Positions 21,483 through 56,894 of a stretch of DNA of 59,493 bases are shown in pieces. This DNA comes from a virus. Numbering within the stretch: position 1 is the first letter of the stretch; each line of letters begins with the position of its first letter. A program made the position numbers and the translations under genes. The stretch is taken from IMG/VR virus record IMGVR_UViG_3300019458_000009, positions 1-59,493 of that record. One strand, 5' to 3'. Below the pieces are notes generated by a model that saw only the letters and a program-made list of their open reading frames with translations, was not told the origin of the DNA and did no database searches.

Positions 21483-21956
21483 TCACCGCCCCAGAACGAG
21501 CTCCACCACGAAGTCCCCGTTCGCCGCGCGTACTCGGTAGATCTCCTCAAACCCCTCCGCGAGCGCGACACCCTCGTAGGAGTTAGCTTTGCGGAATACC
21601 TCGCTCTCGGGGTAGACCTTACGCCGCCGCGCGTTGCGCTGGAGGCACTCATCCAGCCCCGTGTCGAACACGTAGGCGATCGCGCGCACATAGGGCTTGA
21701 ACAAGCCTACGGCGCGCTCGCGCGCCCGGCGCCGGTGGAACGTGCCGTCGAGCATCACACGCGAGTTGCTCGCCCGTGGGTAGTCACGCCGCTTCGCAGC
21801 CACCGCCTCCACCATCTCCCAGAAGCCCCGGTAGTCCGGGGCGAAGGCGTCGGCCTCCAGCACCACCCAGTCGACCCCGTGCTGCCGGGCGAACGTGGTC
21901 TTGCCCGCGGCCGGGAGGCCTACCAGGATCGCCAGCTGCGTGGTCACTACACCCAT
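21483..21956 (-). CDS. P-loop kinase, AAA_33/polynucleotide-kinase-like (157 aa).
   Basis: Walker A GLPAAGKTT lies near the N-terminus. The size and layout fit small nucleotide/polynucleotide kinases. Confidence 0.6.
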   Translation of the reverse strand: MGVVTTQLAILVGLPAAGKTTFARQHGVDWVVLEADAFAPDYRGFWEMVEAVAAKRRDYPRASNSRVMLDGTFHRRRARERAVGLFKPYVRAIAYVFDTGLDECLQRNARRRKVYPESEVFRKANSYEGVALAEGFEEIYRVRAANGDFVVELVLGR

Positions 21957-28629: not shown

Positions 28630-28888
28630 GTTGTTCGCCCTCCACGAAGTCCAAGCGGCTGGACGGATAGCGCCCGCGCGCGACGCGCATGCGCTGGTCG
28701 ACCTCGGGGCACCCGCGGTGCAGGCAGTCGGCGCACGTGGACGGGAATGACGGAAGGATCCGCACCACGTCCTCCACTAGGCCGCAGCACCCGCACCGCT
28801 CCCGACGCCCACACCACTGCGCGAAAAAGCCGGGCGACCGGCCGCGCCGACATCCGCACGGCCGTTTATTGTGCTTTTTCTTCGGCAA
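28610..28888 (-). CDS. Possible Cys-rich mini-protein (about 92 aa). The start is uncertain.
   Basis: The only open frame between the polymerase stop and 28629. It has no ATG or GTG, and TTG 28888 is the candidate start. Motifs CGC, CGCC and C..C are present. Confidence 0.3.
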   Translation of the reverse strand: MPKKKHNKRPCGCRRGRSPGFFAQWCGRRERCGCCGLVEDVVRILPSFPSTCADCLHRGCPEVDQRMRVARGRYPSSRLDFVEGEQRVRDAR

Positions 28889-30872
28889 GGTCCAGGTCCT
28901 CGGCCTCGCTCCACCGAGCGTGGGCAATCTGCGCGTCGACGTAGATGGGTACGCGCATACGAGGCTGCCCCGCATCGTCCAGGAAGGTCTCCAGCACCGG
29001 GCGCAGCGCCCGCGCCGCCTCGAGCGCCGCCTCGCCCGGCACCTCGAACATAAGCTCGTCGTGGATCGTCACCAGGAGGCTTCCATCGAAGCGCTTGGCT
29101 ACCTCGTGCCCTCGAATGGCCTGGTACTTCAACAAGTCCGCCGAACTGCCCTGGCAGATGGCGTTGAGTGCCTGGTACGGCTTCAGTCCGCGGTCTTCCT
29201 TGCCTTGGCCCTTGCCCCAGCCCCACCGCTTGGCCGCGCGGCGCCGGCGGCCCAGGATCGTCTTGACGTAGCCGCGCTGCATAAGCGCCCGGCTCACGCG
29301 GTCCTGGAGGCCGGCGAGCTCCGGCACCTCGCGGTGGTAGGCCTCCAGGACCCGCCGCGCGGCGGCCTCGTCCACCGCCGCGTCGTTGTCCGACATGAAC
29401 CGCACCAGCTTATCCTGGCCCATGCCATACACAATGCCGAAGTTACCAGACTTCATGAGGCTGCGCTTCAAGCTGGTGCCCAGGATTCCGTTCATAAGGT
29501 CAGTCGCCCACTGGTGCATGTCCATCGTAGCGTCGCTTGCGTACGCCTGGATCAGGCGGGGCGAGTTGGTGTAGTGCGCAAAGAACCGGTACTCGATCTG
29601 GCTGGCGTCGAACAGCAGCAGCGCATAGCCCGGCCGCGGCACGAAATACTGACGGGCGCCGGGCGCGCGCCACGTCTCGACTTGGCCCTCGTTCATCTCT
29701 AGGGTAAATTCCTCTTCGTCTGGCACCTGCTGCAGGTTGGGTGAATCGGACGACATGCGGCCCGTGCGCGCGCCGAGCTGGTTGAAGTTCGAGTGGATCG
29801 CGTGATCGATCTCGCATTCTAGGTAAGCCTCGATGAACGAGTTGCGGATGTGGTGCAGCCGCCGCGCCTTGCGGATGTTCCAGAAGACGCGCCGGTGGTC
29901 CGGGTATTCCCGGATATACCGTAGCAGCACCTCGTCGTCAAACCGTGGCAGCCCATACGGGTGTCGGCCCGATGGTTTCGTGCGCCCCAGGATCGGAAGT
30001 CCCAGCTTGTGTTGGACCGCGTCGGCGAGCTCCTCGATGGAGCCCGGGTTGACCGACACGCCGATCAACTTCTCCAGCTCGGCCTCCAGCTCGATGGCCT
30101 CCGCAAGCGTATCGCGACGATCTTTTTTAAGCCGGTCTACATCTACCAGGACGCCACGCAGCTCGCTCTCCACCAGGACGCGCAGCATCTCGCACTCCAT
30201 GGCGTACACCGCCTCAACTTCCTCAGTGGCCAGCTTTGGCGCCTGCCACGCGGCCAGGCGCAGCGCGCGCTCCACATCGGAGCACCCGTACGGCGCCATG
30301 ACGTCGACCGGCACGACGGACCAATCCTGGCGGGCCTTCTTCTGGCCTATCAAGTAGGCATCCTTAGCGGCCTCTTCGTCGGCCGGCATGTTTAGGTACT
30401 TCGCGGTGATGGGCTTCAGTGAGTGCGTCGGCTCCCTTTCGTCGATCAACTGCGAGGCAAGCATCGTGTCCAGTAGCCGGGCGCCCGCGTAGTCACCGGG
30501 CTGCAGCGCGCCGTTCACGATCAAGTGCTTGAGATCAAACTTCAAATTTTGGTTGACTATGAACTTGGCCGATCGTGTGATCTGCGTTAGCCAGTGGTAC
30601 ACCTGCGCGCTGTTTAAATTTTTATCCGCGTCGCTGGGGCTGCGGTGGCGTAGTGGCAGATACCATGCCTCGCCCGGCACCGCGACGGATATTCCTAGCA
30701 GGTCGGCGTGCCAGGGATTCAGCCCGGCGCCGTCGATCTCGCGAGACTTCTGATCTGGCATTGTCTCGATATCGACCGCCACGACCGGTTGCCCGACCAG
30801 GTTCGGCAGCGATTCCCCGGGCGTGACAAGGTTCTTTTTAAACTCGAGCTTGGCCCAGCTTGGGTCGATCAT
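28866..30872 (-). CDS. Family A DNA polymerase with a 3'-5' exonuclease domain (668 aa).
   Basis: ATG 30872 sits in an ATGA overlap. Exo I is VAVDIETMP. Motif A is LLLFDASQIEYRFFAHY, motif B is RSLMKSGNFGIVYGMG, and motif C is VTIHDELMFEV. Confidence 0.9.
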   Translation of the reverse strand: MIDPSWAKLEFKKNLVTPGESLPNLVGQPVVAVDIETMPDQKSREIDGAGLNPWHADLLGISVAVPGEAWYLPLRHRSPSDADKNLNSAQVYHWLTQITRSAKFIVNQNLKFDLKHLIVNGALQPGDYAGARLLDTMLASQLIDEREPTHSLKPITAKYLNMPADEEAAKDAYLIGQKKARQDWSVVPVDVMAPYGCSDVERALRLAAWQAPKLATEEVEAVYAMECEMLRVLVESELRGVLVDVDRLKKDRRDTLAEAIELEAELEKLIGVSVNPGSIEELADAVQHKLGLPILGRTKPSGRHPYGLPRFDDEVLLRYIREYPDHRRVFWNIRKARRLHHIRNSFIEAYLECEIDHAIHSNFNQLGARTGRMSSDSPNLQQVPDEEEFTLEMNEGQVETWRAPGARQYFVPRPGYALLLFDASQIEYRFFAHYTNSPRLIQAYASDATMDMHQWATDLMNGILGTSLKRSLMKSGNFGIVYGMGQDKLVRFMSDNDAAVDEAAARRVLEAYHREVPELAGLQDRVSRALMQRGYVKTILGRRRRAAKRWGWGKGQGKEDRGLKPYQALNAICQGSSADLLKYQAIRGHEVAKRFDGSLLVTIHDELMFEVPGEAALEAARALRPVLETFLDDAGQPRMRVPIYVDAQIAHARWSEAEDLDLAEEKAQ

Positions 30873-31861
30873 AGGGTCTCCATCAAAGCGCCGGCCACCA
30901 GGGCTCGCAGACGCACGCCCCACTCGGGCAGTCGCTGTGACTCAAAGCGGCGCAGGTACTGCGGGTGCGGAAACTTGTGATGCGTGATGTTATGCTTGTG
31001 TAGATATTTCGCCGCCGATTCACCGAGCGCGATTACGATCTTTGGCGAGAGCCAAATTATCGCGCGCGGATCGAGTTCATCGCCGTCGTTGTCGTACGCG
31101 TTCACCAGGTACAACGAGCGCTCGCCCACGCCGGCGAAGTCTAACAAATCGCTGAGAGTTTTACTGCATCCGTTAAAGCCCGCGAACGGGCGCATGCCGG
31201 TTATATCGCCGCCTACCTGCTCTCCAACTAGAAGAATCTTCGGCCACAGGTAGCCCCAGCTCTGGGGCGCAAAGCCGGTGATCGTCATAGACCGATCCAG
31301 GTGCATGCGCCATACATCGAGCGACCACGTGAGCGCTTGTGCGACGGCGTCTTCATTGCCATCGGACGTATCAATCTCTGAAAGGTACGTCACGCCCCGC
31401 CGTCCCAGCGCAAGGTCTTTCAACGCAACATCGTAATATTGATTGATGGCGTTGTAATGTCCCACGGTTTGGCACATATCATCGCGGCCTCGTTCGATCA
31501 TGCGGCGCGCGATTGAATCTACGTTGGCTCGCAGGAGCACTTGCACGCTGCCCGCGCGATTAAGCTCACGCGCTACCAGGCGACGGAGGTGCGGCGTGAA
31601 CTTGGGATTTACGCCGTTACGAAACGCGGCGCCGTACGCCAACTCCGACAGGGCGAATCGATCTGACAGCTGTCCACCTTTAGTCACCGCATCTAGGTAA
31701 CTCTGTCCGTAGTTAAAATTCTCCGGCAAGCGACCCCAGTGCTGTATCTTGATAACGTCGCGCCCGTACCACCGGGGCCACTTTGCGCGGTTGATCTTTG
31801 TCCGCGCTTGATTTAAGAAGGTTGTCTTGCCGACGAAGTCGGCGCCCTCGACGATGAACAC
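30869..31861 (-). CDS. Fusion of a thymidylate/dNMP-kinase-like P-loop domain with a UDG-superfamily (family 4/5-like) domain (330 aa).
   Basis: The N-terminal half has FIVEGADFVGKTTF and SDRFALSELAYGA, the TMK-type P-loop and DRY-like block. The C-terminal half has LLVGEQVGGDITGMRPFAGFNGCSKTLSDLL and HKFPHPQYLRR, which resemble UDG motifs A and B. GTG 31861 after AGGAAA is preferred; GTG 31900 is the alternative. Confidence 0.6.
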   Translation of the reverse strand: MFIVEGADFVGKTTFLNQARTKINRAKWPRWYGRDVIKIQHWGRLPENFNYGQSYLDAVTKGGQLSDRFALSELAYGAAFRNGVNPKFTPHLRRLVARELNRAGSVQVLLRANVDSIARRMIERGRDDMCQTVGHYNAINQYYDVALKDLALGRRGVTYLSEIDTSDGNEDAVAQALTWSLDVWRMHLDRSMTITGFAPQSWGYLWPKILLVGEQVGGDITGMRPFAGFNGCSKTLSDLLDFAGVGERSLYLVNAYDNDGDELDPRAIIWLSPKIVIALGESAAKYLHKHNITHHKFPHPQYLRRFESQRLPEWGVRLRALVAGALMETL

Positions 31862-31871
31862 GATTATTTTC

Positions 31872-32900
31872 CTAATGAAAGCAAAAGTTAAATACGCCAC
31901 CGAGTTTCTGGCGCAACAGCTCTTCTAGCGTACGCCGCGCCGCCTCGGAGGTCTCCACGCCGAGTTGTACTCGCTTCCAAAGCCACGCGGTCTCGGCAAG
32001 TTGTTCAAGCGAATTGAGTTCCGCGCGGCCAATGATGCGGTCTGTCAACCTCGCCTCAGCGGTCTTAGCGTCCAGCGACTTCGTCCACGCCGCGCGTAAC
32101 GGTAATTGCAATTCAGCGTTCGGCCTTAACGGGAATGACTCAGATGTTAAAGATACGTTGTCGCCAAGTTCGCCATAGTAGTATTCCAAGATCCGCTCGG
32201 TCGCGCTCCAATTACGCTCGTACAGGTGCAATGACCCCACTTGGTGTACGTACTCTCCAACGTACGCGCCGAGCTGCTGAGCCATGAGCTCCTGCAGCGC
32301 GGTGAAACAAAAGATGTCATAAAGCGTGCCCAGCCACAGGTCGTTCGATCTCATCGTTGTAATGAGATTTAAGTGGCCGTCGCGCAGCAAAAATTGCAGC
32401 GCCAGCGTGCAGGGATAATCCTTTGTCTTAGCGCCTACGTCCGTCGGCGCGTAGATGGGGATGACCGCCTGGCGCGTGTCGGGATCGTTACGAAGTAGGC
32501 GTTGACACTTTAACCACGGCGACGTTTGTTGACTCTGGCCCAGCTCATCACGGTCCTCAACGCACGGACCAAAGATGCGCGGACCATACGCGCCGTATAA
32601 ATGCGCGCCGTCATCGGAGAACTGCCCATAGCTTGGCGCGTAGTATTTGATGTACTCCAAGTTGTCGGACCCGCACAGGTACCACGCCAGCTCACCGGCC
32701 GCGTACGCCAGCGACCAGCGCCGAAACGGGATCAACGGGATACGGGCGACCGGATCGGTGAGCGTTAACTGCGCCGCCAAAATCTCCTTAGTCCGTTGAC
32801 CGCGAGGCGCCACGTCGGTTCCGTGCCAATACACTCGGCGCAGCGCTTGCCGCCACACGTTAGTTAAACTGTCTCCGCTAACGACGCACTCGTTATCCAC
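31872..32900 (-). CDS. Thymidylate-synthase-fold pyrimidine C5 transferase, probably deoxycytidylate-specific (dCMP hydroxymethylase-like) (342 aa).
   Basis: GGAGG RBS, then GTG 32900. The block YPCTLALQFLLRDGHLNLITTMRSNDLWLGTLYDIFCF aligns without gaps to E. coli ThyA [38 protein letters not shown]. The catalytic Cys is kept and Asn177 is replaced by Asp. NDPDTRQ and SLHLYE blocks are also present. Confidence 0.7.
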   Translation of the reverse strand: MDNECVVSGDSLTNVWRQALRRVYWHGTDVAPRGQRTKEILAAQLTLTDPVARIPLIPFRRWSLAYAAGELAWYLCGSDNLEYIKYYAPSYGQFSDDGAHLYGAYGPRIFGPCVEDRDELGQSQQTSPWLKCQRLLRNDPDTRQAVIPIYAPTDVGAKTKDYPCTLALQFLLRDGHLNLITTMRSNDLWLGTLYDIFCFTALQELMAQQLGAYVGEYVHQVGSLHLYERNWSATERILEYYYGELGDNVSLTSESFPLRPNAELQLPLRAAWTKSLDAKTAEARLTDRIIGRAELNSLEQLAETAWLWKRVQLGVETSEAARRTLEELLRQKLGGVFNFCFH

Positions 32901-34098
32901 GATAAACCTCCGCGCGGGGCTTCTTTGGCCGCCAGCCGGGCACACGGTCGAGCCGCGCGACGTAGTGGGCTGGCCCAACGAGCTCGACCAACTCCTGGTC
33001 GCCCTTATATGAGACGCCGGTCGTCAGCGTCTCGTTACAAAGTTTGCCGAACCACCGCCCGACTTCCACGCAGACGCCCTTGCCGATCTGAGCGGCGCCG
33101 TCATCGCCGATGACTACCCAGTCGTCCGGCAAGCCCATGCACCGCGCCATCTCCCGCACCGAGAGCGGGCGCTGGTGATCGGGGTGGAAGTAATGCCAGG
33201 ACCCACTGTAGATTACCTTGCACGGCCGATCCGGGTGCAGCCGGTGCGGTACGTGCCAGCCTAGGTTGATGGCCTGCAAGCGCTCAGGGAGGTCCGCCCA
33301 AGGCAGGTCGCGCACGTTCTCGCCTGGCGCCAGTTTTAACGCAGCTTCAAAGTACGCCCGCGAAGCGGGCGTCGTCTTCCACCAGTAATGGTGGTTGATA
33401 TAATTCGTCGGCGAATTTTTGACCACGCCTTCCAGATCGTTTAGGGTAGATAGATCGAAGACGGGCAGCGCCGGACAATTCCACAGCGCGCCGTTGTCCT
33501 GGCCGTATAAGACGTCGTGCACTAAGACGTGCGGGCCGCGATGTCGCAGCTCATTCGTGACCGTGGTAAGCGGCGGTTGAAGCCGTTGGTCGACCCACAT
33601 GAAAATCACGCGGGGCCGCCACTGCGAGTTGCCGAACATGTTCGCGTTGTGGTACAACTCGTACAGGGTGTACCCGGCCCCGTGGGTGTGGTGTAGCCAC
33701 TCGATCAGCGGGCGCCCGGTCGTGCCCGCCTGCTGCACCGACTCAAACGCCCATATGCTAGGCTTCAGCCAGGAGGCGAGCTCCGCGAATTGGCGGATGT
33801 CCACCGTCGGCCGGGCCCAGGCGCCGTGCGCGTCTTCAGAACAGCCGTGCCCCAGTGCTGAGAAGCCGGTGCACCGCGGGTTGCCGAATAGCACGTCGAT
33901 GCCGTGAAACTTACTGGCCACGCTGGGCCAGGCCTCGAAGTCGCCGCGGTAGAACGGGATGCCTAAGTTGTGCTCTACGGTCTTTTCCCCCAGCGTGAAG
34001 ACCTCGAGCTGGGCTTGCACTTCTAGACTTTCCGCCATGCCGCAAGTAAAGCCGCCCATGAAGCAATGCGCGCCGAGCGCGGTGAAGCGAGCAGTCAT
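32893..34098 (-). CDS. DNA (cytosine-5)-methyltransferase-like protein (401 aa).
   Basis: Motif I is HCFMGGFTCG, motif IV GNPRCTGFS, motif VI FESV, and motif VIII NSQWRPRVIF. Motif IX is RPLSVREMARCMGLPDDW and motif X is IGKGVCVEV. An ATGA overlap joins it to the upstream gene. Confidence 0.7.
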   Translation of the reverse strand: MTARFTALGAHCFMGGFTCGMAESLEVQAQLEVFTLGEKTVEHNLGIPFYRGDFEAWPSVASKFHGIDVLFGNPRCTGFSALGHGCSEDAHGAWARPTVDIRQFAELASWLKPSIWAFESVQQAGTTGRPLIEWLHHTHGAGYTLYELYHNANMFGNSQWRPRVIFMWVDQRLQPPLTTVTNELRHRGPHVLVHDVLYGQDNGALWNCPALPVFDLSTLNDLEGVVKNSPTNYINHHYWWKTTPASRAYFEAALKLAPGENVRDLPWADLPERLQAINLGWHVPHRLHPDRPCKVIYSGSWHYFHPDHQRPLSVREMARCMGLPDDWVVIGDDGAAQIGKGVCVEVGRWFGKLCNETLTTGVSYKGDQELVELVGPAHYVARLDRVPGWRPKKPRAEVYRG

Positions 34099-34577
34099 GA
34101 GACCCTCTTATCCACGATGTCGATGTGCTGCGCCAACAGCAGCGGGGCCAGGTCGGGCGGTTCATAACCTTCGCCCTTGGGATGCAACGGCGACTTGGCC
34201 TCTTGGTTCGCCGTCTTCGTCATGTTGCTGCGTTGGATCTCTGCGAAGATCGGCGCCAGGTCGATGCCGGCCGCGACGGCCGAGCCGAGTACGACGTACA
34301 GCAGGTCGCCGAGCGCGTCGGCGATCTTCACCACGTCCAGCTGGTGCCACGCCTCCATGAGCTCGCCGGACTCAGAAATCACCATGTGGGCGCGCTCGAC
34401 GCCGGTCTTCCACCACTCGTGGAGCCAGGCCTCGTAACCTTGCGGAAGATGGCAGGCCTTCGTACTGCATCCGGACTTCAACAGGTCGACCACGAAGCCG
34501 TGCTTCTCATGAAAGGTTTTAACCGCCGCCTGCGCTTCACGCAGCGATGGATCGTGCGAGTTAGATCCTGGGCTCAT
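34095..34577 (-). CDS. MazG-like all-alpha NTP pyrophosphohydrolase (160 aa).
   Basis: ATG 34577 sits in an ATGA overlap. The blocks ISESGELMEAW ... ADALGDLLYVVLGSAVAAGIDL ... EIQRSNMTK are typical of MazG-type pyrophosphatases. Confidence 0.65.
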   Translation of the reverse strand: MSPGSNSHDPSLREAQAAVKTFHEKHGFVVDLLKSGCSTKACHLPQGYEAWLHEWWKTGVERAHMVISESGELMEAWHQLDVVKIADALGDLLYVVLGSAVAAGIDLAPIFAEIQRSNMTKTANQEAKSPLHPKGEGYEPPDLAPLLLAQHIDIVDKRVS

Positions 34578-35815
34578 AGCAATTCTCTCCAATCAAACAC
34601 ATGACGTCGACCAAGTTCGGGCGCTTGCCAGTTAAAGTCATCTTTCGTCACCACCGCCTCAATGGAGTCCGGCACGCGGCTCGGTTTGAGTAAATGATGG
34701 CCGGCGAGCTGCTCGCGTTGCAGCCACACACGCTCGATATATTCAGCGCCATACCGACAGCGCTGGATTAATTGTCGCGCCGGCTCGGGCGCCTCCACGT
34801 AATACTTCTCGTCGACGAGCTCCAGGTCGTTGCGCAGCCGCGCGTCGACGAACATCAGCCGGCCTGCCTCCGCTACCTCGCACCAGCGAAATGCGATGAG
34901 CTTGGCGGGGTAGAATTTTCGGTGCGTGATGACGATGGACGCCCAGCAGCGTTGGTACGAGCTCAAGATGTCGCGGGGTGGCACGGGTCCCAGGAACGCC
35001 TCCGCGCCGACGGAGTCCAACAGGTGCGCGTGCCGCTCCAGGTCCCACCGACCCCACACGGCGTTGCGGACCGTCGCGCCGTTGGCGTGCTCGCGCTTGT
35101 AGAATTCCGCCAGGAACTGGTCGCGCTCGTAGTCGTTGCCGACGTAGCCGAAGTCGTACTCCACGCGTGAGGTGTCGATCGCGCGGTCCGGCGGCGTCTG
35201 GTACGGCGGCAGCGAGACGTACTGGTGCCCGGCCCACAGGCGCGCCAGGTACGGCGTGAACAGATAAAAGTAGCTCACGAAATCGGCCCGCGTCGCGTCA
35301 CGGATGGCGCCGGTGAGACGGAACATGTCGTCGAGGCAGGGCAGGAGCCCGTTCGCGCCCAGGTCTTGGTCAAACAAGATCACCGGCACGCCGCTGACTA
35401 CCGCGCGCAAGATGACCGCCGTGACCTCCAGCTTGGCCGCGAGCGAGACGCACGGGTTGATCTTGAGGCACTGAACGTCGGCCTCCAGCGGCTTGAACTC
35501 GCTGGACTCCAGCCAGGCCTTCAGCCGACGCTGCGCCCGGTTCTGCGGATCGCAGCCCCGCGTCTCCTTGATGAGGTCCAGGATCACACGGTGCAGCCAG
35601 AGGCCTTCGCCGTTCCAGGCGCTCGCGTACCGCCCCGTGTCCTGATAGTCGAACGTGTCGACGTTTGACCCGTCGGGTGGCCGCGCGATGCCATTCAATA
35701 CGATCTCGTGGCCGCGCCGGCGCAGCTCATCGAGCACCGACAACGCAAGTTTTGGCGCGTTGCGAGTAAACACCGAGTCGTCGGTGTTGCCGTACATCCA
35801 CCAGGCAATCTTCAC
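34574..35815 (-). CDS. T4 beta-glucosyltransferase-like DNA glycosyltransferase (413 aa).
   Basis: GTG 35815 sits in a GTGA overlap. From memory of T4 BGT, four blocks correspond (this protein / T4):
- MKIAWWMYGN / MKIAIINMGN
- VILFDQDL / YYLFTDIRL
- GYVGNDYERDQ / IYGGSFRSGQR
- FLGPVPPRDI / FTGKIPMNMV, and IAFRWCEVAEAGRLMFVD / ITLRVWETMASDAVMLID
No search was run to verify this. Confidence 0.55.
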   Translation of the reverse strand: MKIAWWMYGNTDDSVFTRNAPKLALSVLDELRRRGHEIVLNGIARPPDGSNVDTFDYQDTGRYASAWNGEGLWLHRVILDLIKETRGCDPQNRAQRRLKAWLESSEFKPLEADVQCLKINPCVSLAAKLEVTAVILRAVVSGVPVILFDQDLGANGLLPCLDDMFRLTGAIRDATRADFVSYFYLFTPYLARLWAGHQYVSLPPYQTPPDRAIDTSRVEYDFGYVGNDYERDQFLAEFYKREHANGATVRNAVWGRWDLERHAHLLDSVGAEAFLGPVPPRDILSSYQRCWASIVITHRKFYPAKLIAFRWCEVAEAGRLMFVDARLRNDLELVDEKYYVEAPEPARQLIQRCRYGAEYIERVWLQREQLAGHHLLKPSRVPDSIEAVVTKDDFNWQAPELGRRHVFDWRELL

Positions 35816-36124: not shown

Positions 36125-36790
36125 TCACCCCTTAAATCGGATCTCCACCCACCCCGCCTCCACCCACTTGGCGAAGACCTTCTGGGCATACGCCTCCGCC
36201 TTCATCACGCTCAGCTGCGCGGCGTGGATCAACTGACGCTTAAACTCGTCGTACTCCACGCCGTCGGGCCCGGCGAGTATAATCATCTGGAAGGCCATCC
36301 AAGCGACGCCCCGCTCGAAGGGATTCTCGATCCGCGCCGACACCCGCGCCTTCTTGAGCGACGTGGAGTCCTTGTCGGGCTCGTCGTCAACCTCGTCGAC
36401 CGCCAGGAGACGCGGGCCCATCATGGCGAAGCGTGAGTCGTTCTTCCGCACCGACTCGGGCACCGCTCGTCCGCTGCGCCGGTAGTGTTCACGCTGGTAC
36501 TGCCGCCCCATCGCCTCGATCATCCAGTCGCGGCGCGCGCGAAACGGCGGCTCTTGCCCCAGGTCTTGGCGAAATCGCGCCTCTAACACCAGGCGTGGCA
36601 TACGCTGTAGCTGACGGTAGTAGTGGTGCACCGGCTCCAAGGTAAAGCCGTCCCACGGTGCAGGTGGCGGGAGCTGAATCTCCTCTTTATCGCGCGCCCG
36701 TTGTGTTTGGCGTTTCTCCTCGAGTGCCTTTTGTTGCGCTCGAACCTCACGCATCAGCTCTCGCTCAATGGCGTCTAGATCAGAATTCAT
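36125..36790 (-). CDS. Hypothetical protein (221 aa).
   Basis: GGAGGG RBS, then ATG 36790. The N-terminus is charged and coiled, and the C-terminus is globular. Confidence 0.55.
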   Translation of the reverse strand: MNSDLDAIERELMREVRAQQKALEEKRQTQRARDKEEIQLPPPAPWDGFTLEPVHHYYRQLQRMPRLVLEARFRQDLGQEPPFRARRDWMIEAMGRQYQREHYRRSGRAVPESVRKNDSRFAMMGPRLLAVDEVDDEPDKDSTSLKKARVSARIENPFERGVAWMAFQMIILAGPDGVEYDEFKRQLIHAAQLSVMKAEAYAQKVFAKWVEAGWVEIRFKG

Positions 36791-39662
36791 CTGGCCCTCC
36801 CGTTCTCGCTTGGTTGCCGGCGAACTCTAGACTTTGAAACCGCTTCAACAGCTCGATGAACGCGCCCGTCTTGTAGTAGGAGTTCTGCTGCCGGCGGAGC
36901 GCATTGCTGCGCACGAGCAGGGACAGCAGATCCCGCGCCTGGTCCTTGCCCACGCCACCCCAGTCGCCGATGTCCGATGGACGGATCTCCCCAGAGCGCA
37001 TTAATCCCTTGATCGTCTCCATCGGGTACGGGAGCGCCATCAAGGCGGCCTTGATGGAGGCGACGTCGGTCACGGCGGCGTCCGATCGCTTAACGTCCGA
37101 ATAGTCCGCGTACCCCATGAATCGAGACGAGTAGATTGTGTTTAGAAATTCCGCGGCCCAGCGCACGTGGCCCTCGCGGACCACCAGCCGCTCCCCGTAC
37201 TCATCGCACGAGAACGTGCGGGCCGCAATGGCGGCCGCCAGGCGGGCGAGCTTCAACCGGTGGTCGGCGGGCTCCACGAGCGGGATCGCCGAGGAGTAGC
37301 GCTGGCCCTGCTCCACCGCCAGGTCGAGGCAGGCTTGCGTGGCGGCGGGCTCCAGGACCACGTCTTCCGGCCGCCGCGACCAGACCCAGAGGATTAGGCG
37401 CCGGCACAGCTCAGATGTAAATCTATGCGGCACGGGCTCGCGCTGCACCTGTTGGGTGATGACCGCCGCGTCTACCTCGTTGGAGGCCACGACCAACGCG
37501 GCGTCAAACCGGCGGACGTCCTCCAGGGAACCCAGCAGCTCCTTGATCGCCTCCGCGCCAAAGCTGTACGTCTCGATCCTGCGGTCGGATCGCGGGTTCG
37601 AGATCCACAGCAGCCGGGTGCGAGCGAACGTGCTACGCCGCTCGATCTTCGTCAGCTCGGCGCGCCCGCTGGACCGCATGTCCGTGAGCGACTGCAGCAC
37701 CTCCGGCGGGCAACCCTTGACCTCCTCCAGGATCACCAAGCGGCGGTCGTTGAGCGGGATGGCTCCCCACGTTACGAACCAGCGGCCTTGCGTCTCCTGC
37801 ACGCCGCCCTTCAACCCAGCGGTTGACGCGCCCTTCATGTCGACGCGCTCGCCGACGCCGTAGTGTTTCAACAAGCGTGACGCCGTCTCGGTCTTGCCTT
37901 GGCCCGAGTCACCGATTACCAGCGCGTCCACCCAGCCCTTGATCGGCTCGCCGTTGAACGTAACGAACAGCGCCGAGTGCCACACCAGGTCCATGAGCGC
38001 GTGTAGCTGGCGCCGCTGGTAAATGCGGGTCACGTTCGCCTCGAGGTCGGAGTAAATCTCGTCCAGTTTACCCTGCACACCCGCTGAAGACCAGTCATCG
38101 TTGGTCGGCTGGAACAGCAGCAGCTCATTGAGTTCCTCGGTCGAGGGCTTAAAACTGGACAGGTTGTCCACGTTGGGTTTGGCCTCGTACGCCAACAAGG
38201 TCGCCACCTGCGTGGCGGGGTCCACGACCGATCGCGCCGTGATCTCGTAGGTCGCGTTCGTCTCGATGCCGTGCCCGACGTGAAAGGCCCGCACAACCGC
38301 ATTCTCCGACGACGCCGGCGTCAGGTTGGTCGTGGAGAATTGCGGTACGAGCCGCACCTCCTCGATGTTGTGCTGGTCCGCGATCAGCAGGTCCGACACG
38401 TCACAGCCGGTCGGGATGCCGATCTTCTCGCGAATCGCGCGATCTTGAGCCGAAGTCGTCACATTGATGAACTCCAGGAGCTCGGCCTCATCGGCCTCAA
38501 ACTCCCACGCCGCGTCGCCCGCTTGGTTCAGGAACACCGGACACACGGCGCACATCTCCATGTTCTTCGGGCAGTTGACCTTTACCGTGCGCGGCGCGAT
38601 GTACGGCGAGGTATTCTTCGCGCTGACGATGACGGGGACCTTTACGCGCTTTTGATAGTACTGCGCCTTCGACGCGCTGCTCAGGTCCACGTCATAGACG
38701 TTAGCGTCGTCGGGCAGCTCAAACGGCTTATCTTTTTGAAACTGCGGCGTCCCTACGATCAGGTTGCGAAAGTCCTGCGGGCCGTAGCCGCCTTGGACGA
38801 AATAGTCCAGCACGTCGCCGTGCGGGTGCCGCTGCAAGTCGAGCGGCAACTGGACGACGCGCACCTCCGCGGCCAGGTCAACTAAGCGGTTCGCCAACCG
38901 CTTAGCGCCGTCCGCCCCGGCCTGGTCTACGTCATAGGCAATCACGACGCGCTTGCCGCGAAACAACGGCGACCACTCGTCACGCCAGTTGCGCGAGCCG
39001 CCGGTCGCGGTGACGGCGTTGAAGCCGCGTTGGCGCAGGCCAATCATCTTGAGCTCACCCTCCGCGACGACAATCTCCTCGCTGCCCTGCAAAGCTTCGT
39101 GCGGCACGAGCCGAATCTGCCCGTGGCGGGCGAGGCTGGTGTACTTCTTTGCCGGTGGGTGAATCTTTAATAGATCGTACGATCGGATGTTGACGAACAA
39201 CCCGGCTTCGTCTTTGATCGGAATGGTCAGGCGGCGAGCCTTCGCGTCCCACCCGAGACGAAACTTGTCCACCGACTCGCCAGAGAGCCCCTTGCTCTTT
39301 TCTAAGAGCTCCAGGAGCTCCGCCGATAGACGCAGCGCGCCGTAATATTCTTCGACGATGCGTGGATTGACCGCATAATCCGGCGTCACGCCGATCGTAC
39401 GCGCGAGCAGGGTCACCACGGCGTGCCGCGGCTGCCCGGTGACCTGGGCCCACAGGTCAATGACGGACCCCTCCTTGCCGCAGCCGAAGCACTTGAAAAG
39501 CTTATTCCGGACGTTGACCGAGCACGACGGCGTGCGGTCGTCGTGGAATGGGCACTGGATCTTCGCCTCGCCGCGCGCGTCGGGCTCCGGGAAGTCCACC
39601 AGGAGCTCCCGCATCGCAGCCAGCCCGTCGAGACGCTTTAAGACGTCCTTAGAATCGTTCAA
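36780..39662 (-). CDS. Primase-helicase: a DnaG-type zinc finger and Toprim domain fused to an MCM-like AAA+ helicase (960 aa).
   Basis: The CHC2 finger is CPFHDDRTPSCSVN..FKCFGCG and the Toprim block is VVAEGELKMIGL...VIAYDVDQAG. A Zn/OB-like block follows (VKVNCPKNMEMCAVCP). Walker A is VIGDSGQGKTE and Walker B is LVILEEV. The MCM-like LQSLTDMRSSGRAELTKIERRSTFARTRLLWISNP is also present. A TTG start at 39662 is inferred. Confidence 0.75.
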   Translation of the reverse strand: MNDSKDVLKRLDGLAAMRELLVDFPEPDARGEAKIQCPFHDDRTPSCSVNVRNKLFKCFGCGKEGSVIDLWAQVTGQPRHAVVTLLARTIGVTPDYAVNPRIVEEYYGALRLSAELLELLEKSKGLSGESVDKFRLGWDAKARRLTIPIKDEAGLFVNIRSYDLLKIHPPAKKYTSLARHGQIRLVPHEALQGSEEIVVAEGELKMIGLRQRGFNAVTATGGSRNWRDEWSPLFRGKRVVIAYDVDQAGADGAKRLANRLVDLAAEVRVVQLPLDLQRHPHGDVLDYFVQGGYGPQDFRNLIVGTPQFQKDKPFELPDDANVYDVDLSSASKAQYYQKRVKVPVIVSAKNTSPYIAPRTVKVNCPKNMEMCAVCPVFLNQAGDAAWEFEADEAELLEFINVTTSAQDRAIREKIGIPTGCDVSDLLIADQHNIEEVRLVPQFSTTNLTPASSENAVVRAFHVGHGIETNATYEITARSVVDPATQVATLLAYEAKPNVDNLSSFKPSTEELNELLLFQPTNDDWSSAGVQGKLDEIYSDLEANVTRIYQRRQLHALMDLVWHSALFVTFNGEPIKGWVDALVIGDSGQGKTETASRLLKHYGVGERVDMKGASTAGLKGGVQETQGRWFVTWGAIPLNDRRLVILEEVKGCPPEVLQSLTDMRSSGRAELTKIERRSTFARTRLLWISNPRSDRRIETYSFGAEAIKELLGSLEDVRRFDAALVVASNEVDAAVITQQVQREPVPHRFTSELCRRLILWVWSRRPEDVVLEPAATQACLDLAVEQGQRYSSAIPLVEPADHRLKLARLAAAIAARTFSCDEYGERLVVREGHVRWAAEFLNTIYSSRFMGYADYSDVKRSDAAVTDVASIKAALMALPYPMETIKGLMRSGEIRPSDIGDWGGVGKDQARDLLSLLVRSNALRRQQNSYYKTGAFIELLKRFQSLEFAGNQARTGGPDEF

Positions 39663-39832: not shown

Positions 39833-40696
39833 TTAGAAGCTCTCGCCGGCCGTCGGCGGGGCCGTCCCAACGTCGTCCGCTTCGGCGACGGGCTCGTCCG
39901 ATTCGTACCGCAAGGTCGTCGCCTCGAAGGCCTCCTTGGCGTGAGCGTACGCCTGCTTGACGACGACGTACTCGGCCTCGGTCGCCCACCCGTTGGCCTT
40001 GAAGTCGTAGTTGAAATACGACTGGCCCTTTTTGTTCTTCTCCAGCACCGAGGTCAGCTGGTACTTCCCGGCGTAGAGCGGGATCTTCGGGCCGCGCCGC
40101 AGCGCCAGCGCGAGCAGCTGTTGGCCCTTCTTGAACTTCGTGCGGGACATCGTGATCGCCACCGGCGCCAGCTGCCCATCCAACAACACGAAGAACACGT
40201 GGTATTTCGTCACGCGCGGCTCGTCGGAGTTGCCCTCGCGCTTCTCGCGCAGGTCCTGCAGCTGGCGTGCCGCCAGCTTTGCCAGCTCGCCGCGAGGGTC
40301 CTTCGATCGGGCCAGGATGCCCTCGCCCGTCTCGCGGGGTGCCCACTGGATCCACTCGTTGAAGTGGTAGAACGGGACGAAGTTCAGCGACCCGCCCGCG
40401 TGGATCAGCGCCGTCTCCGCGTCGGAGTTCAGCACCACGTCACCGGGCTTCAGCTTGCCATCGACAACCTGCGGCGTCAGCGGCTGCGCCAGCAGCAACA
40501 GTGGCAGCTGCAGGCCCGCGTCACCCGCGTTCTCCAGCCCGTCGGCCGCCGAGACGTCGACGTACGCGGGCAGGTCGGCCGGCCGCGCGATCATCGCGCC
40601 TGCCTTGGCCAACTCCTCCGAGGCGGCCTTCGGCACCGCGCCCGCGGGACCCGGGATCGCCGCGTTGACCGCGGCCTTCGCCTTGATCTTCTCCAT
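39833..40696 (-). CDS. Putative ssDNA-binding/recombination-mediator-like protein with an acidic C-terminal tail (287 aa).
   Basis: AGGAGGAG RBS. The C-terminus YESDEPVAEADDVGTAPPTAGESF is acidic and ends in Phe, as in the tails of bacterial and T7-type SSBs. I did not recognise the body. Confidence 0.4.
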   Translation of the reverse strand: MEKIKAKAAVNAAIPGPAGAVPKAASEELAKAGAMIARPADLPAYVDVSAADGLENAGDAGLQLPLLLLAQPLTPQVVDGKLKPGDVVLNSDAETALIHAGGSLNFVPFYHFNEWIQWAPRETGEGILARSKDPRGELAKLAARQLQDLREKREGNSDEPRVTKYHVFFVLLDGQLAPVAITMSRTKFKKGQQLLALALRRGPKIPLYAGKYQLTSVLEKNKKGQSYFNYDFKANGWATEAEYVVVKQAYAHAKEAFEATTLRYESDEPVAEADDVGTAPPTAGESF

Positions 40697-48614: not shown

Positions 48615-50561
48615 CTACTTGTCGTCGCGGCGCACCGCGGCCAGCTGAGCCCGCAGGGCGTCCGCGATCTTCTTGCGGTCGGTCAACAGGTCCGCCAGGT
48701 CGCGCTTCGTCTTGAGCCGCTCCAAGATCAACGAGTCGATCGAGGTCGGCACCACCAGGTCCGTGTATAGCACGTTCCGGGTCTGCCCGATGCGGTGGCA
48801 GCGGTCCTCCGACTGCGACCGCGTCTGCAGCGAGAAGTCGTTGCTGAAGTACACGCAGTGGTTGGCCTCCGTGAGGTTGATGCCGAACCCGCCGGACTGC
48901 GGCTGCCCGACGAACACGCGACAGCGCGGGTCCGTCTTGAACCGCTCTAGGTTGCGCTCGCGGGCCGCGTCGCTGAGCCCGCCGTAGAACGGCGCAACCC
49001 CGTACTTCGCCAGGCGCTCGGACACCAGGCGGATGTCCTCCACGAACCGCGACCACACGATGACCTTGTCCTCCGGCCCGAGCTCCTCCAGGAGCTCCTC
49101 CAACGCCTCGACCTTCGGGTTGCTCGAGAAGCGGTGGATCGTGCCGTCGACCTTCTTGACGAAGCCCGACGTGATCTGCGCGAGCCGCAGCAACTTCACC
49201 AGGATGATCCGCGCCGTCGCGAACCGCTGGTTGCCCACGGCGCCCGCGCCCGCCGCCTGATCGAACAGGTCCGCCACGGCCGCGTTGGCCTCGTCGCCGT
49301 CGTCGACGGCCTCGGCGGCGGCCGGCCGGTCCAGCTGGTCGAGGTCCACGATCATGTCCTCGAGCATCTGCTCGTAGGCCGCGCGCTGGTCGTCGGCCAT
49401 CTCGATCTCTAGCGTCTGGTACATCTTCGCCGGCAGGTCGAGGCACTGGCTCCGCCGGATCACGAAGGAGAAGCGGGCGAGCCGCTCCTGCAGCTCCGGC
49501 AGCTTGTCGCGCTTCCACGAGGCAAAGCCGCCCCAGTGGTTCTTCTCCCCGTAGTAGTTCTGGTAGGCGTAGAACGAGGTGAACCCGAGCGAGCCCGGCT
49601 TCAGGAAGTGAAACTGCCCGTACAGGTCGAGGATGTTCTTGGTAATCGGCAGGCCGGTCAGGATGAACCGCGACCTGGCGCACTCCGCCAGCCGGTACGC
49701 GGCGCGGGCCCGCCGGGTCTCTGGGTTCTTGATCCAGATCGACTCGTCGCAGACCATCAGGTCCCACTGCACCTTGTTGAGCGCCTCCTCGATGGCCTCG
49801 AGCCCCTCGTAGTTGGTCACGGCCACGATCGCCGGCGCCTCGCGTTCACGCAGCAGCCCGACCAGGGCCTGTACCCGTCGGAGCTTGCCGCCCCGCAGCC
49901 GGTCCACGGCCAAATCCACCGTCGCGTGCTTCTGCAGTTCGAGCAGCCAGTTGTGGGTCACCGTCTTCGGCGCCACGACGAGCGCGCGCAGCTGCGGAGC
50001 CGGGCCGTTCCGGCCGCCCCGCTCCCACTCCACGCGGGCCCGACGGGCGCGGTCGCAGATCACGTCGACCACGACCTTCGACTTGCCGGTGCCCATCTCC
50101 ATGAGCAGCGCGAAGTACTCCGCGGTCCGCGCCGAGCTGAACGCGATGGTCTGGTGCCCGTGCGGCTGGGTTGCGTAGAGGTATCCCTCCGGCTCCACGA
50201 CCGCCTGGTCCTGCAGGTAGGCGAGCCGCTCCTGGAGCTTCACGTCCGCCACCGCGCGGGTCTTCAGGTGGTAGTCCAGCATCACCCGCGCCGCGTCGGT
50301 CAACTCCCACGTCGCGGGCTCCCAGTTGTTCGTCAGGTACTCCACGTTCGGGTCCGTCAGCGGCACGAGCCAGGCGCCCTCGCGCTCCGAGTACTTGCGC
50401 TGCGGGAACGCGCGGACCTTCTCCAGGTCGACGCGCGAGGCGCCCGCCGGGTTGTCATCCGCGTACTCCAGCAGCCGCAGCAGCCGCAGGGCGAGCGACT
50501 CGCCGTCGAGCGTGTCGATCAGCAGGCGCTTGGCCGTGGGGGGCGAGGCAGGTTCGCTCAT
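48615..50561 (-). CDS. SNF2-family helicase/translocase (648 aa).
   Basis: Motif I is LLMEMGTGKSKV, motif II MVCDESIWIKN, and motif III LTGLPITKN. Motifs V and VI are FVGQPQSGGFGINLTEANHCVYFSNDFS...EDRCHRIGQ. Confidence 0.85.
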   Translation of the reverse strand: MSEPASPPTAKRLLIDTLDGESLALRLLRLLEYADDNPAGASRVDLEKVRAFPQRKYSEREGAWLVPLTDPNVEYLTNNWEPATWELTDAARVMLDYHLKTRAVADVKLQERLAYLQDQAVVEPEGYLYATQPHGHQTIAFSSARTAEYFALLMEMGTGKSKVVVDVICDRARRARVEWERGGRNGPAPQLRALVVAPKTVTHNWLLELQKHATVDLAVDRLRGGKLRRVQALVGLLREREAPAIVAVTNYEGLEAIEEALNKVQWDLMVCDESIWIKNPETRRARAAYRLAECARSRFILTGLPITKNILDLYGQFHFLKPGSLGFTSFYAYQNYYGEKNHWGGFASWKRDKLPELQERLARFSFVIRRSQCLDLPAKMYQTLEIEMADDQRAAYEQMLEDMIVDLDQLDRPAAAEAVDDGDEANAAVADLFDQAAGAGAVGNQRFATARIILVKLLRLAQITSGFVKKVDGTIHRFSSNPKVEALEELLEELGPEDKVIVWSRFVEDIRLVSERLAKYGVAPFYGGLSDAARERNLERFKTDPRCRVFVGQPQSGGFGINLTEANHCVYFSNDFSLQTRSQSEDRCHRIGQTRNVLYTDLVVPTSIDSLILERLKTKRDLADLLTDRKKIADALRAQLAAVRRDDK

Positions 50562-56666: not shown

Positions 56667-56894
56667 ATGTGGAGATGGACGGCGACAAGAAAACTTTGGT
56701 GGTGGGCGTGGGTGGCGGCGATGGCCGGCGCGATGCTCGCCTCCGCGGAGCGGCCACCGGCGCCGCATCGGCACCCGCCCGGCCCGGACGGGCTGTACCA
56801 GTGGTGCCCGGACGTAGACTTTCGGCTGCACAACTTCAAGGCCGAGATGGAGTGGTGGCACCGGTACCAGGAAGGCTATAGGGAAGTATTGTGA
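56667..56894 (+). CDS. Trp-rich small protein with an N-terminal hydrophobic segment (75 aa).
   Basis: An ORF between the terminase and portal genes. Its stop overlaps the portal GTG. Confidence 0.45.
   Translation: MWRWTATRKLWWWAWVAAMAGAMLASAERPPAPHRHPPGPDGLYQWCPDVDFRLHNFKAEMEWWHRYQEGYREVL

Follow-up and report, generated by a model that had tools for sequence, protein, structure and literature searches.

Organization of the Locus

The viral DNA considered here is IMG/VR record IMGVR_UViG_3300019458_000009, and its whole length of 59,493 nucleotides is referred to as the window. At positions 30869-31861 it carries a gene for a single polypeptide in which a nucleotide kinase domain is fused to a domain with the fold of the uracil-DNA glycosylases (UDG). 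This gene, and all members of its operon described below, lie on the minus strand. It consists of 330 codons and a TGA stop and begins with a GTG codon at 31861. The sequence 5' of this codon is TTAGGAAAATAATC-GTG, and a ribosome-binding site (AGGA, 31870-31873) is positioned 8 nt 5' of the GTG, where it overlaps the TAG stop of a thymidylate synthase (TS) homolog. An identical 330-residue product, derived from a 59.5-kb metagenomic contig, is already on record (P0001/P0013), and megablast returned no near-identical genome from the phage collection.

Directly downstream lies the gene for a 668-residue family-A DNA polymerase (PolA, 28866-30872) with 3'-5' exonuclease and polymerase domains, which is a functional partner by context. 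The TGA of the fusion gene and the ATG of the polymerase gene share the tetranucleotide ATGA (30869-30872), an arrangement that points to translational coupling of two separate open reading frames (ORFs) in different frames with a 4-nt overlap. An initial annotation, made from the sequence alone, had noted that the fusion gene overlaps the polymerase start, and this ATGA bears it out. Upstream of the fusion gene, the operon runs in the order 413-residue protein, MazG/PRA-PH-type enzyme, C5-cytosine-methylase-like protein and ThyA homolog.

Domain Architecture of the Fusion Protein

Domain searches were performed with a 343-residue ORF as submitted, the numbering of which is offset by 13 from that of the 330-residue gene product. 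Searched as a single sequence, this ORF matched PHROG 761 (“thymidylate kinase”) with E = 5.8e-13 over residues 14-191 (gene residues 1-178) and the Pfam UDG family with E = 2.8e-4 over residues 220-323 (gene residues 207-310), the latter match being below the Pfam cut-off. Greater sensitivity was obtained with a family profile of 147 members that was compared with the PDB. Here, the N-terminal half matched YorR over the whole domain with E = 1.5e-25 (residues 1-161 of the 173 in YorR, aligned to profile positions 3-161) and thymidylate kinase (TMK) with E = 1.6e-7, and the C-terminal half matched the family-4 UDG TM0511 (E = 4.4e-9), Thermus UDGA (E = 1.2e-7) and UdgX (E ∼8e-7).

An AlphaFold2 (AF2) model built with 12 homologs, with a mean predicted local distance difference test (pLDDT) of 90.8 and a predicted template modeling score (pTM) of 0.90, comprises a kinase domain, a long helix and an alpha/beta domain. 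In Foldseek comparisons, the best matches of the N-terminal half were deoxynucleoside and thymidylate kinases, and those of the C-terminal half were family-4 UDGs and UdgX (1ui1, 4zbx and 1l9g, E ∼1e-5, probability 1.00). The boundaries obtained from the model and the profiles place a YorR/TMK-like P-loop nucleotide kinase at residues 1-165 (31367-31861), a connecting helix that joins both domains at residues 170-197 (31271-31354), and a family-4-like UDG fold without the iron-sulfur (Fe-S) cysteines at residues 198-330 (30872-31270). The helix was modeled with pLDDT values of 95-97 in blocks 161-190 and 92 in block 191-200. Profiles, model and Foldseek thus agree with the initial annotation, which had called a TMK-like domain and a family-4/5-like UDG domain in one polypeptide. 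Its author had named a lack of UDG-fold similarity in residues ∼190-330 as evidence that would speak against the call, and similarity was found over residues ∼198-330.

Conserved Residues of the Kinase Domain

Residue conservation was counted over 157 family representatives. The Walker A motif, or P-loop, reads GADFVGKTT (31820-31846, residues 6-14), in which Gly-11 and Lys-12 are each conserved in 148/157 sequences. A TMK-type acceptor motif, DRFALSELAYG (31631-31663, residues 67-77), contains Asp-67 (154/157) and Arg-68 (152/157), and an Arg-rich, lid-like segment, RRMIERGRDD (31478-31507, residues 119-128), is deleted in the kinase-decayed relatives described below. The near-invariant positions of this half are Glu-5, Gly-6, Asp-8, Gly-11, Lys-12, Thr/Ser-13, Asp-67, Arg-68, Glu-73 and Tyr/Trp-76. 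The combination taken as the mark of a TMK, a P-loop GxxxxGK[ST] together with DR[Y/H] and a downstream S..AY, is represented by GADFVGKTT and DRFALSELAYG. In agreement with this assignment, profile comparison aligned Escherichia coli Tmk over 120 columns that take in the DR motif, the S..AY segment and the lid. The Gln with which TMKs read thymine (AYQ) is nonetheless replaced; the residue after Tyr-76 is Gly in 83/157 and Pro in 58/157 representatives. Given this replacement, the base read by the kinase half is probably not thymine. Nothing relevant to the function of YorR itself was found in the literature searched.

The initial annotation had raised the possibility that the kinase targets a base within DNA, by analogy with the 5-hydroxymethyluracil (5-hmU) DNA kinases (5-HMUDKs). 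M6 gp54 is a proven 5-hmU DNA kinase, and the enzymes that partner 5-HMUDKs are aGPT-Pplases of helix-hairpin-helix (HhH) fold (PMC8989533). In hhalign profile comparison, only a 21-column P-loop segment of M6 gp54 could be aligned with the fusion family, tblastn detected no homolog of M6 gp51 or gp54 in the window, and none of the neighboring genes had a Pfam match to aGPT-Pplase. A 5-HMUDK-like DNA kinase was rejected as the best reading on the grounds that the similarity is confined to the P-loop and the partner genes are absent from the window.

Conserved Residues of the UDG-fold Domain

Motif A of the C-terminal half, LLVGEQVGGD (31205-31234, residues 210-219), contains a V-G-[E/D] that aligns with the VGE of the family-4 GE(A/G)PG motif. 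Position 214 is acidic in 155/157 sequences (Glu in 78, Asp in 77). Within RPFAGFNG (31169-31192, residues 224-231), Pro-225-Phe-226 aligns with the family-4 “PF” pair that includes the uracil-stacking Phe (Phe-226, 154/157), and Asn-254 of LVNAY (31094-31108) aligns with the uracil-reading Asn of family 4 (156/157). Motif B, HPQYLRRF (30944-30967, residues 299-306), closely resembles the HPAYLLR of Thermus UDGA and contains His-299 (156/157), Pro-300 (157/157), Arg-305 (153/157) and Phe-306 (154/157). Further near-invariant positions are Gly-203, Gly-213, Gly-280 and Gln-301. The family-4 positions represented are therefore the motif-A VGE, the PF pair, the Asn preceding KCRPP and the motif-B HPxYLxR, all of which are established components of the uracil pocket in the structures of family-4 enzymes and UdgX.

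Two departures from family 4 are apparent in these segments: motif A reads VGEQVG and lacks the Pro, and the KCRPP segment that follows the Asn is AYDNDG in the window protein. All motifs that had been named earlier in the two halves were recovered at the residues given above, as was the reported loss of the family-4 Fe-S cysteines. The whole protein contains two Cys residues (Cys-130 and Cys-233), and a four-Cys Fe-S site is consequently impossible. Judged by the residues retained, both halves look catalytically competent. An identity of the C-terminal half as an aGPT-Pplase was also considered and rejected, given that the literature assigns those enzymes an HhH fold and that no Pfam match was obtained.

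The Surrounding Modification Cassette

The ThyA-family homolog immediately upstream (31872-32978) carries Asp at the positions equivalent to E. coli ThyA 143 and 177 and retains Asp-169. This combination is the signature of 5-hydroxymethyl-dCMP (5hm-dCMP) synthases, D169N being the mark of 5-hydroxy-dCMP synthases (2026 NAR, PMC13326640). Its best PDB match was the CMP hydroxymethylase MilA, with E = 8e-46 as against ∼1e-17 for thymidylate synthases. The start of the gene is ambiguous (TTG at 32978, or GTG at 32945, 32900 or 32858), and the longest form overlaps the methylase gene. The protein also bears a C-terminal extension of ∼100 residues.

Two further enzymes are candidates for steps of the same pathway. 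A MazG/PRA-PH-type nucleoside triphosphate pyrophosphohydrolase (34095-34592) is the candidate dCTPase of the cassette. The 413-residue GT-B protein (34574-35815) had no Pfam or NCBIfam match, and one of its homologs carries PF13524. Its family profile matched T4 DNA beta-glucosyltransferase (BGT) with E = 5e-4, and T4 BGT was also the best match of its AF2 model (E = 7e-8). It is thus probably a glycosyltransferase acting on 5-hydroxymethylcytosine (hmC) in DNA. By analogy with T4, the window would encode counterparts of gp56, gp42 and the beta-glucosyltransferase, and the sole candidate for the gp1 step would be the kinase half of the fusion, because the other small P-loop protein of the window (21483-21956, minus strand) is polynucleotide-kinase-like. 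The latter is a 157-residue AAA_33 protein that, among solved structures, is closest to PSTK and to the kinase domain of Clostridium Pnkp, and it has no meaningful similarity to the M6 5-HMUDK. The initial annotation had suggested that hm-dCMP be included among the kinase substrates to be assayed, a suggestion that fits a cassette with a cytosine-type TS homolog and a BGT-like protein.

The composition of the cassette was compared in a neighborhood scan of 80 loci (L001-L080). A ThyA-type homolog adjoins the fusion gene in 78/80, and its motif could be read in 77 of these as well as in the window. Position 177 is occupied by Asp in each of these 78 motifs; position 143 is likewise Asp, with Asp-169 retained, and the one possible exception is L026 (aligned as K-D-V-P-C-T). 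The TS homologs of two additional loci, L082 (phage DSL-LC01) and L084, are known from annotation or Pfam matches and not from residues. A dCMP deaminase gene is adjacent in 74/80 loci and absent from the window. The usual gene order, as in DSL-LC01, is fusion, TS homolog, dCMP deaminase and PolA. In phages AXL3 and PW916 it is SAM-methyltransferase, MazG, fusion, TS homolog and dCMP deaminase. The DNA of AXL3 resists 35/35 restriction enzymes with G/C in their sites, and only two enzymes with AT-only sites cut it (PMC7504290), a pattern that fits a modified cytosine.

Several other genes of these cassettes were recorded. A C5-cytosine DNA methyltransferase-like protein is encoded in the window (32893-34098) and in two relatives (L003, 4862-6073; L084, 4908-6203) with the motifs FMGG, GNPRCTGFS (containing the Pro-Cys pair), ESV and QxRxR conserved; its gene lies inside a cassette that is predicted to replace C by hmC. 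The same two relatives have an added radical SAM/SPASM gene (L003, 6083-7036; L084, 3392-4399). In DSL-LC01 (L082, 17904-18990), a glycosyltransferase and a UDP-galactopyranose mutase are encoded a few genes downstream of the fusion/TS/deaminase/PolA operon, an arrangement suggestive of cytosine derivatives that carry galactofuranose in the large, freshwater branch of the fusion family.

Independent Decay of the Two Domains

Within the clade of polymerases to which the window PolA belongs, the gene upstream of PolA is always a homolog of the fusion gene. The stop of that gene overlaps the PolA start in six of the seven distinct loci read (the window, L003, L005, L048, L083 and L085; L004 duplicates L003). 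The kinase is intact where a ThyA-type enzyme is present, namely in the window, L003/L004 and L084, and it is likewise intact in L048, where a ThyX-type enzyme and a dUTPase_2 protein are found. By contrast, the P-loop, the DR motif and the lid have all been lost in L005 (8001-8735), L083 (8147-9004) and L085 (3111-3989), which encode homologs of 240-292 residues and have no TS homolog or other pyrimidine-C5 enzyme nearby. The UDG motifs of these three proteins are largely kept (L085 has His at the position of Asn-254), and their genes still overlap the PolA start.

A census of 85 loci comprised 79 complete genes with an intact kinase, three cut by contig ends and three with a decayed kinase; since the sequences are related, these counts are not independent events. 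The TS homolog is missing in all three decayed loci and present in every intact one, where it is of the ThyA type except for the ThyX type of L048. The three decayed forms differ enough from one another to suggest separate losses. On this sequence evidence, the kinase half tracks a pyrimidine-C5 pathway and the UDG half tracks the polymerase, and each can fail without the other. It is chiefly this independence that argues against a DNA-base kinase working through both domains in concert, and in favor of two separable jobs.

Further differences were observed among the loci of this clade. In L048 (6546-8741), a 407-residue dUTPase_2 protein and a 318-residue ThyX (Thy1) homolog precede the kinase-intact fusion and no ThyA-type gene is present, a hint that a modified pyrimidine may be reached there by a flavin-dependent route. 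In L084, an ORF for a Cys-rich protein of 123 residues is inserted between the fusion gene and PolA. The phages with a decayed kinase have other modification genes: those for an N6/N4 methylase, for a 764-residue protein in which methyltransferase and Queuosine_synth domains are combined, and for Mom together with dGTP_diPhyd_N and MazG proteins. One phage backbone thus appears to swap DNA-modification cassettes.

Distribution and Annotation

At E ≤ 1e-30, an exhaustive search with a hidden Markov model returned 357 clusters formed at 50% identity. Nearly all are of 290-350 residues and match end to end, and IMG/VR contained 75 loci with the fusion. BFVD yielded full-length structural matches, among them Bacillus phage G gp315; several other BFVD matches are 640-890 residues long and may represent polymerases with a UDG domain, like those of SPO1, N4 and YerA41. 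Cultured carriers include Stenotrophomonas phage AXL3 (gp29), Pseudoxanthomonas phage PW916 and Actinomycetia phage DSL-LC01. The database search for the same fusion that had been recommended in the initial annotation therefore found it collinear in hundreds of independent sequences. An assembly or frameshift artifact, the other circumstance that its author had named as speaking against the call, was rejected, given that the same collinear architecture recurs in the 357 clusters, in the 75 IMG/VR loci and in at least three cultured phages. A single scan of 185,579 cellular genomes with one peptide pattern returned no cellular or prophage relative, a result that does not prove absence.

The fusion gene of PW916 (OL960029.1; L001, 2319-3299, 326 residues) has no annotation in its GenBank record, and AXL3 gp29 and DSL-LC01 WJZ48531 are labeled only as thymidylate kinase. 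The TS homologs beside the fusion are called “thymidylate synthase” in AXL3 and “deoxyuridylate hydroxymethyltransferase” in PW916, and both carry the cytosine-type Asp. No description of a kinase-UDG fusion was found in the literature searched, in which the fusion, widespread as it is, is uncharacterized.

Proposed Function and Its Alternatives

The interpretation to which we assign a probability of ∼0.55 is that the N-terminal half is a kinase of 5hm-dCMP (a deoxynucleoside monophosphate, dNMP) and that the UDG module joined to it, family-4-like but devoid of Fe-S, works at the polymerase. The setting would be a phage cassette that replaces cytosine with hmC and in which the fusion is bifunctional. 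The MazG-type enzyme would turn dCTP back into dCMP, from which the ThyA-family enzyme, as its active-site signature predicts, would make 5hm-dCMP. The YorR/TMK-like domain would then phosphorylate 5hm-dCMP, and perhaps other dNMPs, to the diphosphate, thereby taking the role of the unrelated T4 gp1; host nucleoside diphosphate kinase would generate the triphosphate for use by the co-encoded PolA. The UDG domain, its translation coupled to that of PolA, may bind DNA and flip bases beside the polymerase. In most lineages it would be a working glycosylase, most likely on uracil and possibly on 5-substituted uracil in phage DNA, resembling the UDG domains fused to SPO1-like and SP15-like polymerases, and in some lineages it would be a non-catalytic module at the polymerase. 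Finally, the T4-BGT-like transferase would glycosylate hmC in the DNA.

A number of observations weigh against this interpretation. The window protein misses all curated Pfam and TIGR thresholds: it scored 17.7 bits against a cut-off of 83.25 for TIGR00041 (dTMP kinase), 14.4 against 125.3 for TIGR00758 (family-4 UDG), 18.6 against 189.95 for TIGR03914 and 21.4 against 24.3 for Pfam UDG (PF03167), and it had no match to PF02223 (Thymidylate_kin) at E ≤ 1. Because these thresholds are missed and a family-4 Fe-S cluster cannot be bound, the protein is best regarded as a member of a divergent family that is neither TMK nor UDG family 4 in the strict sense. The loss of the cluster, together with the non-conserved Pro of GE(A/G)PG, also means that glycosylase activity is not guaranteed by the retained motifs, and the substrate range of the kinase (hm-dCMP, dTMP or other dNMPs) is not readable from sequence. 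In L084 (7481-8506), the kinase is kept while the UDG pocket is replaced (PF to PY, Asn-254 to Ser, His-299 to Asn), which makes catalysis by the UDG half dispensable at least in that lineage. Removal by the UDG of dUMP originating from a neighboring dCMP deaminase was rejected as the general reason for the fusion, given that the window has no deaminase. With regard to the polymerase, no fused UDG (PF03167) was found among the best 120 of 387 homologs of the window PolA at E ≤ 1e-20, and the link with UDG-PolA fusions would be one of analogy, not of demonstrable shared descent. Furthermore, in the large IMG/VR branch the TS homolog and dCMP deaminase genes separate the fusion gene from PolA, and adjacency there is at the level of the operon, not gene to gene.

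A bolder form of the polymerase association, which we regard as tentative and distinctly less probable than the interpretation above, makes the UDG half a trans-acting PolA subunit that docks the modified-nucleotide kinase on the replisome, its pocket policing the modified genome. Tethering of nucleotide supply to the replisome had been put forward in the initial annotation. That proposal is plausible and consistent with gene order, in that the overlap with PolA is kept even after loss of the kinase, and this overlap is what suggests a physical contact. If docking were to occur, production of hm-dCDP and hm-dCTP would be coupled to the fork, and a pocket without an Fe-S scaffold might release uracil, 5-hmU arising from hmC by deamination, or even cytosine that has escaped modification, thereby enforcing full replacement. 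Such a protein would define a new UDG family, specific to phages and both structural and catalytic in its role, and would be the first case of a dNMP kinase physically linked to a family-A polymerase.

It is also conceivable, if doubtful, that the UDG half is mainly a non-catalytic polymerase accessory (a clamp, a processivity factor or a guide for the template) with a pocket that senses bases, comparable with poxvirus D4 or the N4-like domain. The stop/start overlap with PolA in the six clade loci, the retention of the L084 variant despite loss of Phe-226, Asn-254 and His-299, and the persistence of kinase-dead variants at the same place are in keeping with this idea, for which there are published precedents in the inactive UDG on N4-like PolA (bioRxiv 10.1101/2025.03.26.645540) and the Mpox replicative complex. 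Conservation of the active-site acidic residue, Asn and His in 155-156/157 sequences, however, argues for selection on catalysis, and in the largest branch the gene does not adjoin PolA. An equally unpersuasive explanation is that an ordinary thymidylate kinase and an ordinary uracil-DNA glycosylase have been joined for housekeeping, with thymine let in and uracil kept out, and have no particular connection with modified cytosine or the polymerase. The label of thymidylate kinase in public records would be explained in this way, as would the Pfam matches among the relatives (Thymidylate_kin PF02223 in 61/147 at E ≤ 1e-3, UDG in 31/147), the dCMP deaminase next to 74/80 fusion genes and the conservation of all uracil-pocket residues. 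Yet every adjacent ThyA-type enzyme in which the motif was read is of the cytosine type and not a dTMP synthase, the base-reading Gln of TMK has given way to Gly or Pro, and the scores lie far under the dTMP-kinase equivalog cut-offs. Moreover, decay of the kinase coincides precisely with absence of the C5-modifying enzyme, though every phage needs dTTP, and the UDG half keeps its place at the start of PolA next to a dead kinase.

Two further explanations are considered very unlikely. In one, the UDG fold would flip 5-hmC or 5-hmU out of DNA for the kinase to phosphorylate its hydroxymethyl group as a step toward hypermodification, as 5-HMUDKs do. The fusion gene does lie in base-modification cassettes, some relatives encode extra enzymes for which no role is apparent (radical SAM/SPASM in L003 and L084, SAM methyltransferase in AXL3 and PW916), and 5-HMUDKs are likewise small P-loop kinases (PMC8989533). 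Against this, Tmk and YorR align over the whole domain, nucleotide-acceptor motifs included, as compared with the P-loop alone for M6 gp54; the window has neither an HhH-type aGPT-Pplase partner nor a 5-HMUDK homolog; the two domains decay independently; and the cassette would be left without an hm-dCMP kinase, the other small P-loop protein being polynucleotide-kinase-like. Once a base is buried in the pocket of a UDG, as known structures indicate, a second active site has no access to it, and a flipped base would by this reasoning be out of reach of the kinase. The initial annotation's proposal of a kinase acting on a base in DNA is accordingly disfavored. The other explanation, hardly more credible, has the UDG half bind dUMP, dCMP or hm-dCMP as free pyrimidine nucleotides and not act on DNA; it would then serve the kinase by allostery or channeling, or deplete a canonical nucleotide as an N-glycosidase. 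UdgX crystallizes with dUMP (PDB 6ajp), the two domains appear rigidly packed (pTM 0.90), and a nucleotide kinase as fusion partner would favor the passing on of substrate. HPQYLRRF nevertheless keeps the Y-L-x-R that follows the catalytic His of family 4, with Arg-305 and Phe-306 near-invariant, and the domain outlives the kinase beside PolA, which would be senseless for a regulator of that kinase. We know of no precedent for a mononucleotide enzyme with the UDG fold.

If the interpretation as a 5hm-dCMP kinase fused to a polymerase-side UDG module is correct, the fusion marks a large and mostly uncultured set of non-T4 phages that make hydroxymethylcytosine DNA, and the restriction resistance of AXL3 is explained. 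The missing hm-dCMP kinase of these phages would have been found as a non-orthologous replacement of T4 gp1, in a gene that annotation pipelines call thymidylate kinase or miss. It would also add a third arrangement of UDG folds at viral polymerases, a separate, translationally coupled and kinase-bearing protein, to the PolA-fused domain and the poxvirus D4 subunit. Consequences would also follow for phages considered for therapy whose DNA resists restriction, and for the enzymes used to make modified DNA.

Other Genes of the Window

Outside the operon, a 745-residue protein with a portal domain and, at its C terminus, a Mu-F-like head-morphogenesis domain is encoded on the plus strand at 56891-59128. 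Genes for a 960-residue primase-helicase (36780-39662), a Pam3 gp34-like protein (39833-40696) and an SNF2 helicase (48615-50561) were also identified. The window looks like a near-complete phage genome.

Comparison with Known Systems

The kinase half shares its fold and its closest sequence family with YorR of Bacillus subtilis SPbeta (PDB 2axp and 3kb2). Stand-alone YorR/TMK-like “nucleotide kinases” are encoded beside cytosine-specific TS homologs as DLP3_078, RB69p045 and RL38J1_214 (PMC13326640), and the fusion gene similarly adjoins a cytosine-specific ThyA homolog. Unlike the fusion, these kinases are single-domain proteins of ∼170-200 residues with no UDG, and DLP3 and RB69 have a separate T4-gp1-type dNMP kinase that performs the proven phosphorylation. 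The step predicted for the fusion, hm-dCMP to hm-dCDP, is that of T4 gp1 itself (PDB 1dek and 1del), within a cassette that similarly holds gp56 (dCTPase), gp42 (dCMP hydroxymethylase) and beta-glucosyltransferase, of which the window appears to have analogues. This likeness is a functional analogy only, given that no sequence relationship to gp1 was detected (gp1 was not among the PDB matches listed) and that gp1 has no UDG domain. The 5-HMUDKs (M6 gp54 and ViI gp67) are, like the kinase half, small phage P-loop kinases in pyrimidine-modification cassettes, but they pair with HhH aGPT-Pplases and not with a UDG fold and occur with dUMP-type TS homologs.

For residues 198-330, the best structure and profile matches are family-4 UDGs and UdgX (1ui0, 1vk2/1l9g, 4zbx and 6ajo). 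The fusion differs from these in having no four-Cys Fe-S cluster, no conserved motif-A Pro and no UdgX R-loop His, in its scores far below the curated cut-offs, and in that its type of UDG domain is, as far as one scan shows, never free-standing in cellular genomes. Phage family-A polymerases with an N-terminal UDG have been described, in which the domain is inactive in N4-like and active in SPO1- and SP15-like members, where it detects dU in advance of the fork (bioRxiv 10.1101/2025.03.26.645540). The fusion resembles the SPO1- and SP15-like UDG-PolA proteins in that a family-4-type UDG fold with largely conserved motifs A and B is placed right before PolA, in phages predicted to contain a C5-modified pyrimidine. 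By contrast, the UDG of the fusion is a separate polypeptide that meets the polymerase at an ATGA overlap and bears a kinase on its other side, the PolA of the window belongs to a different clade, and the predicted modified base is hmC rather than a derivative of thymine.

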